Both the position numbers and the translations under genes were made by a program. From Longimicrobiales bacterium (GTDB lineage Bacteria; Gemmatimonadota; Gemmatimonadetes; Longimicrobiales; Gaopeijiaceae): a stretch of 64,000 nucleotides of DNA. Below the pieces are notes generated by a model, which was not told where the DNA came from, did not search any database, and saw only the letters and a program-made list of their open reading frames with translations. Each line of letters begins with the position of its first letter. Position 1 is the first letter of the stretch. The stretch lies in assembly GCA_965218295.1 (NCBI GenBank), contig CBDCKN010000013.1:224001-288000 (forward strand). Reading direction: 5' to 3'. Shown here piece after piece: positions 1-9,926 of this stretch.

Positions 1-1
1 T

Positions 2-1438
2 TTCAAGAGCAGACCGCCGCTTCCTGAACAGAGATTTCGCTTGGTGTTGTGCTGGTTGCAACACGATGCTGCCGGACGTGACACGAGCACGGTCGAAGAG
101 GCCTTCACTGGCGTTGAGGGCATCGAATTGGTCCGCTCTGCCCGTGTCGTGTCAGCACTTGGTGCTGCGTACGATTGGCGGCCAGCCATGCGGAAGGGCA
201 CCCTCACAGTGTTGAAAACGTGGAATGCCGACTTGGCAGTCGTCGGTTCGGTCAAAGATCCCGGAAAAGCACTAAATTTGTGGTTCGTGCCGCGCGAGGG
301 GGACGGCACACTTCATCGAGCGGACCTGCCTTACGAGTTGGTTAACGTGAGGCTGCAGGATGACTTCCACGAGGATCTCCGTGCTCAGCTCACCGCCGAG
401 GCGCTGAGAGTTGCAGCGCCGATCACGGGAACGGAAGCACGCGGCCGGGTGCTGGAGAAGGGCCTGAACGGCGTCATCAAGAAGATCGCCGCCCTGCTCG
501 AAGGCGGTACGGTCGAATCGGAGCGTCGCGCCTCCCTGCATATGGCGTTTGGCGTCGCCCTGGCGACCCTGGGTGAGCGGGAGCCCGGGACAGAGCGCCT
601 TGAGCAGGCCGTGGATGCCTTCACCGAGGCGCTCAAGGAGCAGACGCGCGATCGGGTGCCCCTCGACTGGGCTACGACGCAAAACAACCTCGGCGTCGCC
701 CTTGAGACCCTAGGCGAGCGGGAAAGCGGGACAGAGCGCCTTGAGCAGGCCGTGGATGCCTATGCTGAGGCGCTCAACGAGCGGACGCGCGATCGAGTAC
801 CCCTCGACTGGGCTATGACGCAGAACAACCTCGGCGCCGCCCTTACGGCCTTGGGCGAGCGAGAAAGCGGGACAGAGCGCCTTGAGCAGGCCGTGGATGC
901 CCACACCGAGGCGCTCGAGGAATGGACGCGCGATCGAGTGCCCCTCAACTGGGCTATGACGCAAAACAACCTCGGCGTCGCCCTTTCGGCCATGGGCGAG
1001 CGGGAAAGCGGGACAGAGCGCCTTGAGCAGGCCGTGGATGCCTATGCTGAGGCGCTCAAGGAGCAGACGCGCGATCGAGTGCCTCTCAACTGGGCCGCGA
1101 CGCAAAACAACCTCGGCGGCGCCCTTACGGCCCTGGGCGAGCGGGAAAGCGGGACAGAGCGCCTTGAGCAGGCCGTGGATGCCTATGCTGAGGCGCTCAA
1201 GGAATGGACGCGCGATCGAGTGCCCCTCAACTGGGCTATGACGCAGAACAACCTCGGCGTCGCCCTTACGGCCTTGGGCGAGCGAGAGAGCGGGACAGAG
1301 CGCCTTGAGCAGGCTGTGGATGCCTTCACCGAGGCGCTCAAGGAGCGGACGCGCGATCGAGTACCCCTCGACTGGGCTATGACGCAGAACAACCTCGGCG
1401 CCGCCATTCGGATCTTGCGTGAGCGGGGCAGGCGGTAG
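2..1438 (+). CDS. Tetratricopeptide-repeat protein with 47-aa tandem repeats; 5' end runs off the window
   Basis: Frame is open from base 2. Repeats RDRVPLxWAxTQNNLGxALxxLGERESGTERLEQAVDAxxEAL are TPR-like. Confidence 0.85.
   Translation, partial: FKSRPPLPEQRFRLVLCWLQHDAAGRDTSTVEEAFTGVEGIELVRSARVVSALGAAYDWRPAMRKGTLTVLKTWNADLAVVGSVKDPGKALNLWFVPREGDGTLHRADLPYELVNVRLQDDFHEDLRAQLTAEALRVAAPITGTEARGRVLEKGLNGVIKKIAALLEGGTVESERRASLHMAFGVALATLGEREPGTERLEQAVDAFTEALKEQTRDRVPLDWATTQNNLGVALETLGERESGTERLEQAVDAYAEALNERTRDRVPLDWAMTQNNLGAALTALGERESGTERLEQAVDAHTEALEEWTRDRVPLNWAMTQNNLGVALSAMGERESGTERLEQAVDAYAEALKEQTRDRVPLNWAATQNNLGGALTALGERESGTERLEQAVDAYAEALKEWTRDRVPLNWAMTQNNLGVALTALGERESGTERLEQAVDAFTEALKERTRDRVPLDWAMTQNNLGAAIRILRERGRR
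551..1396 (+). repeat. Six near-identical 141-bp intragenic tandem repeats
   Basis: Equivalent GGC codons at 551, 692, 833, 974, 1115, 1256 and 1397, an exact 141-bp period. Confidence 0.95.
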
Positions 1439-1894
1439 TCGGCCCGCGGCAACCGAGGCGGCTCGACTAGCCCGGATCCGTCACCAGGGGTGCTGAGAGT
1501 GCGGGATCTCGCCTTGCGGAAGAGCGGTGGGGCGAGGTCAGGGTGCGGTGCGTCCTCGGGGAAGGTGGGAAGCAGCGATTTGGATGCTGTGCGGGGCGAT
1601 GTATCCGTGAGGCGTGCGTGAACCGGGAATGCAGCGGACGCCGAGCACCGCCCCGGAGTGAACCCATCCGAGGCGCAGGGGGGGCGAGGCTCAGAGGCGT
1701 TACGCGGGTGCTGGGTGTAGCTGCTCGGCGGCGGTGGCGAGGTTGCGAGCGACCCGTTTGAAGAGTGCCGGCTTCCTGCCCGAGGGTGATCCGGTCGCCT
1801 GCGCCGAGTTCGGTGCCTGCTCGCTGCGCCGAGGAGGGTGTTCCATTCATTTCCATTCTCTCTCTTGGTCCCATCCTTCATCTCTCTGCCTCCG

Positions 1895-2113
1895 AAATCA
1901 CCTTCTGGTGTCCCGCTCATCACGGCCAAGGTTGTGAAGAGAGGACGGATCAGTAGGCCTACAGAATTCATTGCAATTGAGAACTATGGCTCTTGGATGC
2001 AACGTGGCATTCCCCGACCGGGTGATGTCTTAATTACGACTGAAGCACCATTGGGAGAAGTTGCACAGCTCTACCACCAGCGCGTTGCTCCGGCACAACG
2101 ACTTATCCTATTG
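1895..2113 (+). pseudogene. hsdS: Type I restriction-modification specificity subunit (HsdS) fragment, cut by IS256
   Basis: GVPLITAKVVKRGRI...GIPRPGDVLITTEAPLGEVAQL resembles an HsdS target-recognition domain. Lower GC; ends at the IS256 IRL. Confidence 0.65.
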
Positions 2114-2274
2114 GAGTTAGGATCAAAGGCATCATAGGGGCATGGCGACCGCTACCGGTACCGATCAGCAGCTAAGCAGCCCGAAGACGAAGAGGCGTTC
2201 TCCTCCGGGAACGGGTGCGCGTTCATCATTGTTCGCGCAAGGAAGCAACCCACCTATCCAAGAGGAGGATGCCG

Positions 2275-3330
2275 ATGGAGAGATATATCGGACTCGACGC
2301 ACACGCGTCGAGCTGCACGCTGGGGATCGTAGGACCCAGCGGAAAACGTTTGGGCTCGCAGGTGGTGGAAACGAACGCGCGGGCGCTGATCGAGGTGCTG
2401 CGAGGGATTCCGAGGAACCAGCACTTGTGCCTGGAAGAAGGGACGCTGTCGGGGTGGCTGTACGAGGTGCTGGAGCCGCACGTGGAGGAGCTAACGGTGG
2501 CGGGGGTCGGCAAGAGCCGGGGCCCGAAGACCGACAAGCTGGACGCGTTTGCCCTGGCGGAGAAGCTTCGGATCAGATCACTGGAGACGAGGGTCTACAA
2601 GAACCGGGGCCAGTTCAGGCGGCTGGGGGAACGGGCGAAGAGCTACGACTTCCTGGTCGGCGACACGGTGCGGGTGAAGAACCGGCTCAAGAGCGTGCTG
2701 CGCTCGAGAGGAGTGGCCTACGGCGCGGGGCGCTCGGTCTACTTGAAGCGCGACCGGGAGGAGTGGTTGGCCAAGCTGCCGGAAGCGAGCAGGGCGACGG
2801 CCGGGTTGCTGTACGAGGAGCACGACGCACTCGTGGCATTGAGGGCGAAGGCCGAGAAGGCGTTGCTGGCGGAAGCACGCAAGCATCGAGAGTGGCATGT
2901 GCTGAAGACGTGCCCGGGTCTGGGTCCGATCCGGACGGCGGAGCTCCTGCCGGTGGTGGTGACGCCGTACCGGTTCCAGAGCCGGAGCAGATTCTGGGCG
3001 TACTGCGGACTGGGCGTGGTGATGCGGAGCTCGTCGGACTGGGTGCGGGGTCCGGGTGGGCGGTGGGTAAGGGAAGCGGTACAGCAGACGCGGGGGCTGA
3101 ATCGGAACTTCAACCACACGCTGAAGCGTGTGTTCAAGGGCGCGGCGACGACGGTGATCGGTCGGGCCGAAAACGAACCCTTGTACCGCCACTACGAGCG
3201 ACTCCTGGAGGGGGGCACGAAGCCGAATCTGGCGAAGCTGACGATCGCGCGTCAGCTCGCCTTGATCGTGCTAGCGGTGTGGCGCACGGGCGAAGCGTAC
3301 GACCCCAAGAGACTGGAAGCGACGGAGTAA
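2275..3330 (+). CDS. IS110-family DEDD recombinase/transposase
   Basis: AGGAGG RBS then MERYIGLDAH, LEEG, KTDKLDA (DEDD), CPGLGPI and YCGL...RSSS motifs. Frame intact. Confidence 0.95.
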   Translation: MERYIGLDAHASSCTLGIVGPSGKRLGSQVVETNARALIEVLRGIPRNQHLCLEEGTLSGWLYEVLEPHVEELTVAGVGKSRGPKTDKLDAFALAEKLRIRSLETRVYKNRGQFRRLGERAKSYDFLVGDTVRVKNRLKSVLRSRGVAYGAGRSVYLKRDREEWLAKLPEASRATAGLLYEEHDALVALRAKAEKALLAEARKHREWHVLKTCPGLGPIRTAELLPVVVTPYRFQSRSRFWAYCGLGVVMRSSSDWVRGPGGRWVREAVQQTRGLNRNFNHTLKRVFKGAATTVIGRAENEPLYRHYERLLEGGTKPNLAKLTIARQLALIVLAVWRTGEAYDPKRLEATE

Positions 3331-3399
3331 ACCGGGCCGGGATCGGCGAGCGTGGGGTCGAAAGCGGTCACAACATGGGGTCCGACGAAACGGAAGCGA

Positions 3400-3545
3400 A
3401 CCGGTTACAGGGGACAGCATCCATACACACCGTGGGCCGGGGCAGAGAGCCCAAGCCCCCACTCAAAGGCTATGCACCCCTGGAGAGCCGAACGAAGCGA
3501 TGGGCCACAGAGTCCCAGATAGAAGGATGGTTCCCGCTCCAGAGC
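3400..3545 (+). ncRNA. Predicted bridge/seek RNA core (target-binding loop plus donor-binding loop)
   Basis: Stem CAGGGG..GCAT/ATGC.CCCCTG with inner GTGGG/CCCAC encloses TACACACC (3424-3431) and TCAAAGG (3463-3469), matching both strands of the target. A second stem GGAG..GAAC/GTTC..CTCC with inner TGGG/CCCA encloses ATAGAAGG (3519-3526), matching the element's right end plus core. RNA ends are approximate. Confidence 0.8.
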
Positions 3546-3696
3546 GGAGAACGCGACGGCTGTGAACGTCTTCCGGACTGCGATGCGGACCCTGCGAGCG
3601 CACCCCTCCCCACCCTGAGTCGTCGACCGGGCAATCCAAACCATGCGGACGCCGACGGTCAAAAAATGAGCCGACGGCGCGTGGGGAAGGTGCGTC

Positions 3697-3719
3697 TTGA
3701 CCGCCAGCCCCATAGAAGG
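3697..3719 (+). promoter_or_regulatory. -35 half of a circle-junction promoter of the IS110 element
   Basis: TTGACC (3697-3702) plus 17 bp through the AAGG core would abut CATCAT (2130-2135) upon circularisation. Confidence 0.7.
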
Positions 3720-3846
3720 GTGTGTAAAAAGAGCGGCGACGTACCTTTGCGCTGAGATTTAAACCAGCGAGCCCGGGTGACAGCCCAATCGGTATCCTCG
3801 GCCGCCCAATCCCGGAACGACGACCGGAAGCCGTGCGGCACGGCCG

Positions 3847-5047
3847 ATGTGGGAGACGCTCGAGGGGATGGTTAGGGAGAAGGCGCAGGAGTGCATCCAA
3901 CAGATCATGGAGGAGGAAGTCACGGAGTTATTAGGCCGGGAGAAGTCAGAGCGCAGGAGTACGGTGGACTCGGTCGAGGGCTACGGCAACGGATATGGCA
4001 AGCCGAGGCGGTTGGCGATGAGCTCGGGCACGATCACACTCCGACGCCCTCGGGTTCGGGGCGTCGAGGAGCGGTTCGAGAGTCGGGTGCTGCCGTTGTT
4101 CGCGAGGCGGACGCAGGAGCTGGGCGCTCTGCTTCCGGAGCTGTATCTGCATGGGCTGGCAGAGGGAGACTTCGAGCTGGCGATGCGGGGACTGCTAGGC
4201 GAGGGGGCACCGCTGTCGAAGTCTTCGATTCGGAGACTGCGGGCGGGATGGACGGCGGAGTTCGAGGAATGGAGCCAGCGTCGCCTGGAGGGCCGTGAGG
4301 TCGTCTACGTATGGGCGGACGGGATCTACGTGAAGGCAGGGCTCGAGCGGGACAAGGCGCTGCTGCTGGTGGTGCTGGGCGCGATGCGAGACGGGACGAA
4401 GGAGGTGTTGGCCCTGAGATCGGGCTACCGAGAGTCGGTCGAGTCCTGGTCCGAGGTGTTGCGGGATGTGAAGGCACGCGGCATCGAGGCGCTCCGGCTT
4501 CTGATGGCGGACGGTAACGCGGCGATCTGGGGCGCAGTACGGCAGATATGGCCTGAGGCGGGCGAGCAACGGTGCTGGAACCACAAGATGAGGAACGTGC
4601 TGGACCGGCTGCCTCAGCGGGAGCAGAGCGAGGCGAAGGATCTTCTCAGGGACCGTGGTCTACGCACCGAGCCGGGCCGAGGCTGTGAAGGCCCGCGAAG
4701 TGTTCGCCAGGCGCTACAGGCCGTGGTATCCGAAGGCGGTGGACGTACTCGAGGACGACTGGGAGCGGATGGTGGCGTTCTACGACTTCCCCGAGGATCA
4801 CTGGAAGCATCTACGCACGACGAACGTGGTCGAGAGCCCGTTCGCTGCGCTACGGCTCAGGACGACGGCGGCGAAGCGATTCAAGCGGGTCGAGAGCGCT
4901 ACGGCGCTGATCCGGAAGTTGCTCTTGGTGGCCGAGAAGCGGTTCCGAAGGCTCGACGCTCCTCACCTCCTCAAGGACGTGTTTGAAGGAAGGAAGTTCG
5001 AAGACGGAAAGCCCGTCTCAACCCAACAGCGGAAAAACGCCGCCTGA
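3847..5047 (+). pseudogene. IS256-family transposase, frameshifted near 4650 and with an altered 5' end
   Basis: ORFs 3847-4986 and 4655-5047 together match the intact transposase at 20638-21882. Confidence 0.9.
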
Positions 5048-5076
5048 TACGTTTACACACCTATTGACCCAACCTC

Positions 5077-5225
5077 CGGGCCAGACCGACCTCTGCCTCC
5101 CGCAGTGCAGTGATGATCTGCTCCGGAGTGTGTCGCTTCCTTCCCATCCTGACCTCCTCGCTGAAAAGCTTCAGACCAGGTCGATCCTAACATTGCACCT
5201 GGTCTCGTTTCAGGGGGGCAGGTCA
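5077..5225 (-). mobile_element. IS3-family left-end remnant truncated by IS256
   Basis: Minus strand begins TGACCTGCCCCCC, then an RBS and MGRKRHTPEQIITALREAEVGLA (typical OrfA start). Confidence 0.8.
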
Positions 5226-5357
5226 GTTCCGTAGCCCAGTATGGCACTAGCCCTCCTAATCTTGACACAGGTGAGCCATCCGGGCACCCTTTGCCGTGAG
5301 GCTGGGGGCTAACTGCCGCCTGGGCCGAGTTGCCTAGTACTGTCAAGGAGGCGAGCC

Positions 5358-6185
5358 ATGGCGCCCACATACCTCGACGCACGACCGATGCTCCTGCTCT
5401 GCGGAATGTCTCTTGTCCTCGCAGTAGGGGTCGGCACGCCGGCTCCGGTCCGTGCCCAGAATCAGACACCTGAGGAAATCGGGCTGCAGATCGCGCAGGG
5501 CGCGCGCGTGCGCGAGGAAGGATTCGGCAACTTTGCGGCGCAGCAGGTGATGGTGTTGCGGAACAGGCAGGGGCAGGAGAGCCGGCGTCGGCTCCAGGTG
5601 CAGGTTCTTGAAGTGCCGGACGGGGGCAATAGGAGCCTCTTCGTATTCGATGAACCGCGGGACGTACAGGGAACGGCGTTTCTGGTGCATGCCCAGCGTG
5701 AAGGCGCGGACGATCAGTGGCTCTACCTTCCCGCATTGAGGCGCGTCAAACGTATCAGCTCGGCGAACCAATCCGGCTCCTTCATGGGCAGCGAGTTTGC
5801 CTACGAAGACCTGACCCCGCAGGAAGTGGAGAGGTTCACGTACCGCCATCTGCGCGACGAGCCCTGCGGCGACCTGACCTGCACGGTCACGGAGCGCACA
5901 CCTATGGACACCGGGTCAAGCTACCGACGCCAGGTGGTTTGGCGCGACACGGACGAGCTTCGCGTCTGGAAGATCGAATACTACGACCGCAAGGATGACC
6001 ACCTGAAGACGCTCACCATGCGTGACTACACGCAGTACCTGGGTCGCTACTGGCGGGCCAGCGAAATGGAAATGGTGAATCACCTGACCGGCAAGAGCAC
6101 ACTATTGACCTGGACAGATTATGAGTTCCAGGCGGATCTCGACGACAGCGATTTCACACAGACGGGACTGAGACGAGCGAGGTGA
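5358..6185 (+). CDS. Outer-membrane lipoprotein-sorting (LolA-like) protein
   Basis: Signal peptide; F.EP.DV.GT.FL, DDQWLYLPALRRVKRI and SFMGSEFAYEDL motifs. Confidence 0.9.
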   Translation: MAPTYLDARPMLLLCGMSLVLAVGVGTPAPVRAQNQTPEEIGLQIAQGARVREEGFGNFAAQQVMVLRNRQGQESRRRLQVQVLEVPDGGNRSLFVFDEPRDVQGTAFLVHAQREGADDQWLYLPALRRVKRISSANQSGSFMGSEFAYEDLTPQEVERFTYRHLRDEPCGDLTCTVTERTPMDTGSSYRRQVVWRDTDELRVWKIEYYDRKDDHLKTLTMRDYTQYLGRYWRASEMEMVNHLTGKSTLLTWTDYEFQADLDDSDFTQTGLRRAR

Positions 6186-7495
6186 CGCACGTCCAAGAGG
6201 CTCTCTCCGGGAGTCTCCCGGCCAGCGCCGCCTGGGCTCTGGCTTCCTTGTTCGCCGTGTTTGTCGTCCACGCCCATGCCGCCGCCGGCCTGCAGGCCCA
6301 AGAAGCCGATGCGCCGCCGATCGAGTACGAGATCTCGGGGCGCGTGAGCGCTGAAGGCCGTTGGTTCCCCCAGGAGGGGGCCTTCGATGGCCAGAAGTCA
6401 CTCGCCGCGGGCTTTGTCACGGCGCTGAGGCTCGATTTAGAGAACGTCGTTGGCCAGAGTGTCGCGGTCGCCCCTTTCTTCCGCTACGACCACTCCGATC
6501 CACACCGAACGCACTTCGATCTGCACGAAGCGTATCTGCTGATGTTCGGCGACGTCGGTGCAAGCGGCTGGGAGCTGCGCATCGGTGCCGACCAGGTGTT
6601 CTGGGGCGTCACCGAATCGCAGCGTCTGGTCGACATCGTCAACCAAATCGACTTCGTCGAGCATCCGACCGGAGAAGCCAAGCTGGGGCAACCGATGGTG
6701 CACGCCACGTGGTTCGGCGACTGGGGCGCGTTCGAAGTATTCGGGATGCCATATCACCGCGCGCGGACGTTTCAAGGGCGTGAGGGCCGGCTGCGACTGC
6801 AGTTTGTCGTGGATGAGGAACGTATCGAGTACGAGAGAGGGGCCGGGCCGTGGCACCTGGATCTGGCCGCTCGCTACAGCCATAGCCTTGGGTTGCTCGA
6901 TCTGGGTCTGAGCGTATTTGACGGCCTGAGTCGGGAGCCCTTTCTGGTGCCGGTGGGCAATCCGGACGGAGTACTAGCCCTGCTCCAGCACTACGAGCAG
7001 ATCCGTCAGTTCGGGCTCGACGCCCAGGTGACGTTTGGCTCCTGGCTGCTGAAGCTGGAGGCAATTCAGCGTGCCGGTGCTCGAAATCTCTCCGGTGTAC
7101 AGGAAGACTATTTCGCTGCCGTCGTGGGTGGCGAGTACGCGTTCTATTCGGTCGCCGGCTCCGCAGCCGATCTGAGCCTGCTCGGCGAATGGAACTACGA
7201 CGGGCGGGGCCGTAGCGCGACGCCGAGCCGTTCGCCCGACACGCTAGAAAACGATCTCTTCTTTGCCGCGCGCCTCGCACTCAACGATGTCCACAGCACC
7301 GCGATTACTGCCGGCTTTTTCACAGACGTGAGCCGGGCCACCCGTACGCTAGCGCTCGAATTTGATCGGCGTCTTCTCGGCGAGTGGTCCCTGCGTGCGG
7401 AGGTCGTCACACTCCTTAGCGTCGACCCGGCGGATCTCCACTACCTGATGCGAAACGACAGTTTCCTCGACCTTAGCCTTACCTACAACTTCTAG
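6182..7495 (+). CDS. Putative outer-membrane beta-barrel protein
   Basis: Signal peptide, alternating aromatic/polar strands, C-terminal YNF; overlaps the upstream gene by 4 bp. Confidence 0.7.
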   Translation: MTHVQEALSGSLPASAAWALASLFAVFVVHAHAAAGLQAQEADAPPIEYEISGRVSAEGRWFPQEGAFDGQKSLAAGFVTALRLDLENVVGQSVAVAPFFRYDHSDPHRTHFDLHEAYLLMFGDVGASGWELRIGADQVFWGVTESQRLVDIVNQIDFVEHPTGEAKLGQPMVHATWFGDWGAFEVFGMPYHRARTFQGREGRLRLQFVVDEERIEYERGAGPWHLDLAARYSHSLGLLDLGLSVFDGLSREPFLVPVGNPDGVLALLQHYEQIRQFGLDAQVTFGSWLLKLEAIQRAGARNLSGVQEDYFAAVVGGEYAFYSVAGSAADLSLLGEWNYDGRGRSATPSRSPDTLENDLFFAARLALNDVHSTAITAGFFTDVSRATRTLALEFDRRLLGEWSLRAEVVTLLSVDPADLHYLMRNDSFLDLSLTYNF

Positions 7496-7607
7496 AGAAG
7501 CCGGGGTGAAGGTCAAACAGGACGCCCGGGACGCTGCAATCGCGGCTGAAGCCTCGTAGGTCCCCGACGCTGGCAGGGTTCCTAGACGACGGGAGCCATG
7601 AAGTCCT

Positions 7608-9926
7608 TCATGGCTCCCGTCGATCGAAGGTGAGCAAGAGCGTAGGCAGCAGCAAGAAGTCGGTGGCTAGCGCCAGGATGATCGTCATTGCCACCAGAGT
7701 TCCGAGCGCCCAGCTCACCTCGAACCCAGACGAGGCGAACACCAAAAAACCGGCCGAAATGACGGCGGTCGTCGTAAACAATGCATGCCCCACAGTTCGG
7801 AAGGCGAAGCGCACGGCCTCCGGCGGGGGAAGCCCTTCGCGCCGCCCCTCGATGTACTTGCTCAAGAAATGGACGGTGTCGTCCACGACGATGCCGAAGA
7901 CGACGGCGATGACCACCGAGGACGCAATACCCACATGGCCCACAAGATAACCCCATAGCCCGAAACTCATGATGGCCGGTATGAAATTCGGAAGGAGGCT
8001 GATCAGGCCAGTCCAAACGCTTCTGAATATGAAGATCAGGATGAACGAAATGAGCGCCATCGCGGCAATCGTGCCGCTGAGCATGCTGTTGATATTGCGC
8101 TGTGACAAGTGAGCGAACATAACGCTGATGCCCGAGGCCTCATTCGCTAATTCCGGCGTGTTGGCTTGCAGCCAGTCCTGGGCGCGCGCGTCGAGCTCCC
8201 GTACCTCCCGAGACCATGCGTTGCCCATGGCGACGACCATACGCGTGGCCGACTTGCCGACATCGATGCGATCATTGAGATCACTTCCGAATGGCAGTGA
8301 CAGCTCATAGAGCAGCAGGTACTGCGCCGCCAGATCTGCGCTCTCGGGCAGGCGGTAGAATGCCGGATCGTCACCGTTCATGTTCCTGTTGAGGCGCTTC
8401 ATGATGTCCGTGAACGACTGGACAAACGACACCTCAGGCTGTTCTCGGTACCATTCCGCGAATGCATCGACCTGCCGAAGATACTCGGGATCCGTAATAC
8501 CGCCTTCCTCTCCCGCGTCCAGCGAATATTCCAGCCTGTCGAGTCCTGTCAGATTCGCGGCGATGAAATCCGAATCGCGCCGAAACTGATACCGGTCGTC
8601 GAAGTACTGCGTCATGTTGTCGTTAAGTTCGATGCGCGCGACGCCGGTCGCCAGAACGACCACTGCCAGTGTTGTGGACCCAAGCAGAAGCGTGCGCCGG
8701 GCCACGACGATATCGGCTAAACGATCGAAGAAGCGTTCGAAGAGCACCGGCTCGCCGGCCGGAACGTGCGCGGAGCGCAGCGGCAGGCAAGCGAGCAACG
8801 CGGGCAGAAACGTCATCGTGTATGCAAGGGCGCAGAGCACCCCAAACGCCACGTAATTTCCTAGGACATGGAATGGCGGTGAGTCGGAGGCATTGAGGCT
8901 GAGGAATCCAATCGCGGTCGTAACGGAGGTAATGAAGATCGGGTAGGTATTGATCTTGAACGACTCGATAATCGCAGTGAATTTGTCCAGTCCGCGCCGT
9001 ATCCCCAGTAAGACAGTCGAGATGACGTGGATCGAATCCGCAACCGCTATAACCATGACGATGATTGGCACGCCGACGTTGGTAGGGCTGAACACCACGC
9101 CCCGCCATCCGGCAAACCCCATGGTCGTGCTGACAACGAATAGGAGTATGGCGACGACCGCCAACGTGGCGAACGCCGAGCGCAGCAGGAGAACCGTGGC
9201 GACGACGATGACGAGGAACACGATCGGCGTCAACGTCCGAATGTCGTCGCGCGTAGCGTCCGAAAACGTTCGGTTCATCACGACGTCGCCGGTCGTGAAG
9301 TAGTCGATTTCGGGGTGGCTTGCGCGGGCTTCGTCCACGACCGCATTCAGATAGTCGGTGATTTCGGTCACCGCCTGATCGGGATTCTCGGGGAGGACGA
9401 AGTTGATCGCGACGCCTGCCACGCGCCCGTCGTAGGAGATCAGACGGCCGGCAATATCTATGGCGTTCCGCGCAATCGTCTCAATCCGAGCGAGGTCGGC
9501 ATCACTCAGGCCGTCGGCATCTTCGACGAGCGGGGCGACGATAAGGTCGTCCTCACCGAAAGCCTCGCTGTGGCTGTAGTTGGTGAGCGAGTTGACACGG
9601 CTGGAGTACGGCGCCTGCCAAGCTGCGTCGGTTAGCTCCACGATCGCGCCGAGCGCCTCGCGCGTGAACACGGTGCCATCCCTTGGTGCCACGGCGATCA
9701 GGGCGCGGTTGGAGACGGCGTAGGTGTTCTCTAGGGCGTCGAAAGCGAGAAGTTGCGGATTGTCCTCACTAAACAGAATCCGATAGTCATTCGTGATGGT
9801 AATGGAGGCAACACCGGCAGTCGCCGCCAACATGAGAGCCGTAGTAAGCGCCACAACCGGCCAGCGGTAGCAGAGCACGGCGGCGACATAGCGGTCCAGC
9901 CGCGAAGAGTTCATCGCCTCGGACAT
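7608..9926 (-). CDS. MMPL/RND-family transporter
   Basis: Two repeats of a periplasmic loop plus TM bundle; IAVADSIH and GIVVDDTVHF motifs. Start codon uncertain. Confidence 0.9.
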   Translation of the reverse strand: MSEAMNSSRLDRYVAAVLCYRWPVVALTTALMLAATAGVASITITNDYRILFSEDNPQLLAFDALENTYAVSNRALIAVAPRDGTVFTREALGAIVELTDAAWQAPYSSRVNSLTNYSHSEAFGEDDLIVAPLVEDADGLSDADLARIETIARNAIDIAGRLISYDGRVAGVAINFVLPENPDQAVTEITDYLNAVVDEARASHPEIDYFTTGDVVMNRTFSDATRDDIRTLTPIVFLVIVVATVLLLRSAFATLAVVAILLFVVSTTMGFAGWRGVVFSPTNVGVPIIVMVIAVADSIHVISTVLLGIRRGLDKFTAIIESFKINTYPIFITSVTTAIGFLSLNASDSPPFHVLGNYVAFGVLCALAYTMTFLPALLACLPLRSAHVPAGEPVLFERFFDRLADIVVARRTLLLGSTTLAVVVLATGVARIELNDNMTQYFDDRYQFRRDSDFIAANLTGLDRLEYSLDAGEEGGITDPEYLRQVDAFAEWYREQPEVSFVQSFTDIMKRLNRNMNGDDPAFYRLPESADLAAQYLLLYELSLPFGSDLNDRIDVGKSATRMVVAMGNAWSREVRELDARAQDWLQANTPELANEASGISVMFAHLSQRNINSMLSGTIAAMALISFILIFIFRSVWTGLISLLPNFIPAIMSFGLWGYLVGHVGIASSVVIAVVFGIVVDDTVHFLSKYIEGRREGLPPPEAVRFAFRTVGHALFTTTAVISAGFLVFASSGFEVSWALGTLVAMTIILALATDFLLLPTLLLTFDRREP

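Follow-up and report, generated by a model that had tools for sequence, protein, structure and literature searches.

An IS110-family element is inserted in the left terminal repeat of an IS256-family element, and the 3' non-coding end of the IS110 element very likely encodes a bridge/seek RNA that would steer its recombinase to this repeat. The IS110 element was found in a window of 64,000 nucleotides, the whole stretch of DNA that was analysed. It has defined ends, an AG core, an empty counterpart of its target, three guides that covary with their sites, a conserved fold and conserved catalytic residues.

The element and its recombinase

The features of the element and of its host are the following.

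2129..3718, + strand: IS110-family element, 1,590 bp, with a single copy of the AG core at its right end
2275..3330, + strand: DEDD recombinase gene, 351 aa from the likely start; frame open from 2215
2130..2135, + strand: predicted -10 hexamer CATCAT of a junction promoter, which would form when the ends join
3697..3702, + strand: predicted -35 hexamer TTGACC of the junction promoter, in the joined-end sequence
2114..2128, + strand: the 15 outermost bp of the host IS256-family element's left terminal inverted repeat; the AG core is 2127-2128
3719..5076, + strand: remainder of the host IS256-family element (PF00872, NF033543)

The bounds of the element are those of full-length copies with identical ends in genomes G001, G002 and G061. 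The recombinase matches PF01548 (40.8 bits) and PF02371 (32.8 bits), each above the Pfam cut-off, and the NCBIfam equivalog NF033542 with 110 bits over 24-360 (E 1e-31; cut-off 140), a score by which it appears to be a divergent IS110 member. The residues D10, E56/57, D89 and D92 are conserved in 117-120 of the 121 aligned relatives, and S255 is conserved in 119. A profile built from 46 relatives matches IS621 (E 1.4e-10) and ISCro4 (E 2.8e-7), and its alignment places S255 opposite S241 of IS621; S255 is the predicted catalytic serine in the C-terminal domain. A PDB search with the recombinase as a single sequence gave 0 matches. Among the 15 matches listed for plasmid-borne IS110 proteins, the best are only 23-28% identical to the recombinase, and its best named relatives come from Gemmatimonadota assemblies. 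The clade therefore appears, from these comparisons, to be distant from named elements.

The recombinase gene is followed by 388 bp of non-coding DNA 3' of its stop, versus about 146 bp 5' of its start. Joining of the two ends places the -35 and -10 hexamers 17 bp apart with 9 of 12 consensus letters, and a scan of the linear region for a comparable promoter found none. For the comparison with relatives, 154 related loci were examined, and 86 of them were parsed with a common scaffold, the other 68 being on cut contigs or having scaffolds of another kind. Of the 86 parsed loci, 77 have the motif TTGA(C/T) at one constant spacing from the right end; the motif also served as the parsing anchor. 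Joined ends of the element were not seen in four sequencing runs. The perfect sub-terminal inverted repeat reaches at most 5 bp, in two 5-bp blocks parted by an indel. Three of the six copies in G002 (L182, L183 and L184) share a deletion of about 58 bp near the 3' end of the gene; they retain the RNA region and both ends despite this deletion, and are possibly mobilised in trans.

The target site

A search of the element's own genome showed that the left terminal repeat of an IS256-family element is split in two here, one half lying to the left of 2129 and the other to the right of 3718. Joined together, 2114..2128 and 3719 onward give a repeat that is present empty 45 times in genome G000, along with one variant. 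Excision of 2129-3718 regenerates this empty site exactly, with AG common to target and donor and with no further duplication. Complete empty IS256 elements in G000 are flanked by exact 8-bp duplications in 25 of 34 cases, and the host copy in the window is without a target duplication. Its transposase is frameshifted (3847-4986 and 4655-5047) by one extra base versus an intact copy. Sites with at most two mismatches from the site spelled by the guides are IS256 repeats in 47 of 49 cases. The target guides claimed by the first-pass annotation were borne out, and the identity of their target, the terminal repeat of an IS256-family element, had been left unnamed there.

The element has 14 close copies (one in G000, one in G001, six in G002 and six in G061); at least one junction falls in an IS256 repeat in 13 of them, and both junctions do so in 11. 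The exceptions are one off-target copy in G061 and one copy each in G001 and G002 with a single foreign flank. In the off-target copy (L138 / L211), the AG crossover is shifted by one base to the right with respect to the two guide matches. Given that only one of the 46 AGGG-type left repeats of G000 is filled, the copy in the window may be new or sluggish. G000 has also undergone a large recent burst of one IS256-family element, whose left and right repeats each number about 45 in the 3.57 Mb of the genome.

The right flank of the host IS256 element (5077 onward, minus strand) resembles the start of an IS3-family element, in which case three elements would be nested. On the other side, the short frame 1838-2113 is cut by the IS256 end; we take it to resemble a fragment of a type I restriction specificity subunit, and a Pfam search of this frame gave no match.

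The target-binding loop

The first-pass annotation had proposed an RNA with two loops that carry target and donor guides, and the strings that it quoted are present at 3408-3420, at 3472-3482, and at 3519-3526, which is identical to 3712-3719. The features of the first loop are as follows.

3408..3482, + strand: target-binding loop, closing stems 3408-3420 / 3472-3482, with compensatory changes among 58 sequences
3424..3431, + strand: 5' target guide TACACACC, complementary to 3719-3726 in the right flank (8/8)
3463..3468, + strand: 3' target guide TCAAAG, same sequence as 2123-2128 (left flank with core)
3469..3470, + strand: likely handshake dinucleotide GC, the first two bases of the left end of the element

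In the 58 sequences, the closing stems are paired in 94% and 100% of the cells, and three of their pairs show 27, 21 and 5 two-sided changes, which agrees with the closure read earlier. The guides are unpaired in the consensus fold of these sequences. The inner stem GTGGG/CCCAC held in part: two of its G-C pairs are general, and the rest are not (66% of the cells paired). The reverse-complement guide does come first in the loop, 3424-3431 preceding 3463-3468, and the order is the same in all parsed loci. The 5' target guide fits three different registers, in 5, 13 and 16 loci, and it is surrounded by a CCA-9 nt-TG frame. In the window, G3432 stands unpaired opposite the core G, and pairing with the AG core is incomplete at best for both 5' guides.

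In 53 of 58 loci, the dinucleotide directly after the core of the target loop is the one with which the left end begins. This dinucleotide changes along with the left end in L030, L090 and L098, in a comparison from which the L160 row (anchor misplaced) and the handshake cells of the AC-core rows (L106 mis-picked, the others without a match) were left out. Handshake guides are described for IS621 in PMC11208158 and PMC13626964, and by analogy we infer that the post-core dinucleotide would act as a handshake guide in the elements with an AG core only; the match did not hold in the AC-core relatives looked at.

The donor-binding loop

The features of the second loop and of the end of the RNA are as follows.

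3487..3531, + strand: donor-binding loop, GCC 3487-3489 / GGT 3529-3531, inner stem GGGC 3502-3505 / GTCC 3512-3515
3494..3498, + strand: candidate second donor guide GAAGC, 4/5 complementary to the left end GCATC; weak and inferred
3519..3525, + strand: 3' donor guide ATAGAAG, same sequence as 3712-3718 (right end with core)
3530..3552, + strand: 3' hairpin, the likely end of the structured RNA, formed in both single-sequence folds

The closure first read for this loop (GGAG..GAAC / GTTC..CTCC with inner TGGG/CCCA) had to be given up, since its positions are paired in 73.9% of cases versus 73.3% in shuffles and the covariation score of its helices was matched by 436 of 500 shuffles. The combination of GCC/GGT, GGGC/GTCC and the 3' hairpin is paired in 95.1%, with none of 500 shuffles as good, counts that are biased in its favour because the structure was derived from the same alignment. 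The 3' hairpin taken by itself is paired in 91.8%, with two-sided changes at five of its eight pairs, and its covariation score was reached by none of 500 shuffles.

The 3' donor guide equals the right end of its own element over seven bases in 73 of 77 loci, and the two change together; agreement with this guide was itself one of the grounds on which the right end was chosen. Over 10 distinct pairs of guide and right end, the agreement is 6.8 of 7 versus 5.17. The GA directly 3' of ATAGAAG is a likely handshake, agreeing with the window target at one of two bases.

The AAGG core proposed for both 3'-side guides does not stand. Among 58 loci, 55 have a left flank ending in AG and only 14 one ending in AAG; the right flank begins with a base other than G in 15 of 77, and G is the first letter of the left end in 57 of 58 (duplicates included in all these counts). 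The shared core is AG, and the AAGG identity in the window is partly a coincidence. The second donor guide was also placed differently in the first reading, at GATG against CATC of the left end. Of the 54 loci with a conserved CATC, 18 have another sequence in place of GATG, and the last G of GATG is part of the inner stem. The segment GAAGC fits better, yet it stays a weak candidate: it is kept in 57 of 58 loci, with a fixed A-A mismatch and no pairing with the core. The same position forms 3-4 of 5 pairs with different letters in the AC-core relatives L106, L109, L155 and L163, and the pairing with the left end fails in L090.

Covariation of the guides with their DNA sites

Equally long matches arose in the shuffled non-coding end with a chance of 0.25, 0.028 and 0.088 for the single guides, and all three arose together in 5 of 5000 shuffles. 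The covariation of guides and sites was assessed with one locus per distinct guide, by permutations that ignore kinship. The 3' target guide agrees with its own left flank at 4.52 of 6 positions versus 2.33 +/- 0.22 when permuted (27 guides), and the 5' target guide fits its own right flank at 5.71 of 7 versus 3.23 +/- 0.18 (42 guides), the latter score being the best of three registers for observed and permuted pairs alike. For each of the two guides, 0 of 10,000 permutations reached the observed value. Three guides covary with their DNA sites among relatives, and the fourth is weak. Covariation of guides and flanks gives good support to the two-loop bridge/seek RNA with target and donor guides. 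The first-pass annotation also inferred that a complete, reprogrammable guide RNA could be designed directly from the sequence. The target loop can indeed be read, and natural reprogramming of it is plain to see; that reading is nevertheless no basis for designing a guide RNA in full, because the core, the closure of the donor loop and the second donor guide had been misread.

The contigs of two RNA runs from one study (X1 and X2) hold 286 and 153 nt of the recombinase gene at a depth of 2.4-2.9 and nothing of 3331-3715; as contigs cannot show absence, these runs are evidence neither for nor against the RNA, nor for a habitat.

Proposed mechanism and alternative explanations

By analogy with the bridge/seek systems characterised in PMC11208160, PMC11208158, PMC11187229 and PMC13626964, the element would excise and its ends would join into a circle, creating the promoter, from which a transcript would run through the recombinase gene into the 3' end. 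Each loop would be bound by one recombinase dimer, these steps being modelled on IS621 and ISEc11. The target loop would open the IS256 repeat, with its 5' guide on the top strand to the right of the core and its 3' guide on the bottom strand to the left of it, and the donor loop would bind the junction of the circle. Insertion would then proceed by serine-linked strand exchange at AG, aided by the post-core handshake dinucleotides. The element would gain a neutral landing site that multiplies with its IS256 host.

A variant of this mechanism, rather than a separate system, is that only the target loop guides, the donor being read mainly by the protein through the sub-terminal repeat and by one donor guide, with the second donor strand structural. 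The near invariance of the candidate second donor guide, its fixed A-A mismatch, its lack of pairing with the core and its failure in L090 speak for this variant, and the abundant RNA of the ISEc11 type, at about 80 nt and carrying the target matches (PMC11187229), is in line with it. Against it stand the joint changes of 3' donor guide and right end in several lineages (the 10 distinct pairs), those of the post-core dinucleotide and the left end, and a perfect sub-terminal repeat of just 5 bp. We consider the variant possible but on the doubtful side.

Guided insertion into the repeat has also to be weighed against the movement of an IS256::IS110 composite as a unit by IS256 transposition, without repeated guided insertion. 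Duplications of 7-8 bp flank four of the five composites in G061, and no empty repeat of the composites' type was found there; such duplications are, however, equally expected if IS256 arrived first. The filled IS256 copies moreover differ from one another (78-95% to the window copy in G002) and are interspersed with empty ones in G061, and joint movement leaves the guide-flank covariation in relatives unexplained, which makes it an improbable account. It could also be argued that the guide matches arose by chance in a G+C-rich non-coding tail, given that each match is short alone, that an Rfam search of 1-8000 gave 0 matches, and that the single-sequence fold of the region has z-scores of only -2.0 and -1.4. 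The guide-flank covariation and the compensatory pairs speak against chance so strongly that it is virtually ruled out, unless kinship alone yields 27 + 42 distinct matching guide-flank pairs.

Comparison with known systems

The element can be assigned to the IS110 family. It resembles ISEc11, ISKpn4, ISPa11 and ISPst6, the elements of the IS1111 group with a 3' seekRNA (Siddiquee et al. 2024, PMC11187229), in the long non-coding region after the gene, in the top-strand complement lying 5' of the bottom-strand match, in the junction promoter (predicted here) and in the natural reprogramming between relatives. It differs from the ISEc11 type in its target, an IS256 end, and in its sub-terminal repeat, of which the longest perfect stretch is 5 bp here versus 11-13 bp near-perfect there. 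It also carries GLGVVMRSSSD where the IS1111 group has GL-P----S(t)G; among the relatives, the P position is I/V/L, and the G position is S/A in 117 of 121. Because neither this motif nor the sub-terminal repeat (present as 5-bp blocks) agrees, the element is not filed in the IS1111 group.

With IS621 and ISCro4 (PDB 8wt6, 9t56), as presented in PMC11208160 and PMC11208158, the element shares the DEDD residues and the catalytic serine (predicted here), two internal loops, a 2-nt core, handshake-like dinucleotides and an imperfect second donor guide. It differs from them in that its RNA lies 3' of the gene, the order of the guides is reversed, the core is AG rather than CT, the Gly after the serine is replaced by Ser/Ala, and the relationship is detectable by profile only. 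The CCA-9 nt-TG frame around the 5' target guide resembles box C / box D of TIGR-Tas, and IS110 RNAs are stated in PMC12045711 to share TIGR box C/D motifs. Membership in TIGR-Tas is nonetheless rejected, given a single two-loop unit in a mobile element, no 36-nt array, a full recombinase, and a match to NF052498 that is weak and below the cut-off (57 bits versus 100).

Since guide and site change together in the relatives, the element adds a clear case to an RNA-guided mechanism that is already known; the targeting of transposon ends has likewise been described before. Work by Partridge and Hall in 2003 reportedly found that IS4321 and IS5075 target the terminal repeats of Tn21. ISEc21 targets codons of an IS3 transposase, according to PMC11187229. 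All three are, like the window element, aimed at other mobile elements; here, in contrast, the host belongs to the IS256 family. No paper with IS256 ends as the target of an IS110 element was found by title or opening of the abstract in a search that covered mostly non-subscription literature, and supplementary target tables may hold such a case. The element adds a bridge recombinase of compact size (351 aa) that belongs to a distant clade and comes with an AG core, a predicted 3' RNA and dozens of natural guide-target pairs; this is useful for tool mining and for testing the register and handshake rules beyond IS621.

Retargeting among relatives

Guides that match IS256 ends occur in three separate lineages, namely the window element, L035/L036 (68% identity) and L052 (60%). 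L036 is followed by a PF00872 gene, and L052 is preceded by one in the opposite orientation; in L035, the guides are present and the left flank does not match them. A quick tree of 73 proteins requires at least three changes for the IS256-end guides, and an AU test on 26 of these proteins rejects the grouping of the six IS256-guided rows (p 3e-36), although exchange or loss of loops could mimic a threefold origin. In the G001 copy, the 3' guide is changed and the left junction is the right-hand IS256 repeat; in a fragment on C12 of G000, the guide is one A longer and the junction fits the variant repeat.

The IS256 elements of G061 give 16 long matches, one without its left end. Five are filled and show AG at either junction. 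The 10 left repeats that are empty have ATGG (8) or TAAG (2) at the place of the core, none of them AG. The presence of AG in the filled and its absence from the empty left ends hints at escape. It is conceivable, if rather unlikely, that a divergent IS110 clade recurrently parasitises IS256 in an arms race, its guides having been re-aimed at least three times to track end variants (left, right and opposite orientation) and IS256 escaping by a change of the two-base core. Several observations go against such an arms race: AG at filled sites holds by construction, the filled and empty copies of G061 are interspersed by body sequence and give no time order, and empty AGGG repeats are retained in G000 (45), G001 (7) and G002 (5). 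If escape were true, RNA-guided elements would hold back another IS family and shape how it spreads.

Further traces of related elements were seen in G000, where C12:183621-183930 is the right end of a related IS110 element with a longer 3' guide, and C3:154175-154251 and C3:85551-85647 are left ends of related IS110 elements with other left flanks. Most relatives (L022-L100) target a loose repeat, with GGATAG in the left half and TTCAA/TCCAA in the right half. A second IS110 subfamily, 40% identical, is found at C3:279268-280305 of G000 (L109) and in G011 (L106 and 14 more); it has an AC core and the same two-loop plan as the window element. The flanks of its 15 matches in G011 appear to resemble integron attC ends. 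Elsewhere in the window, 41-1438 encodes a 465-aa protein with many near-identical TPR-like repeats.
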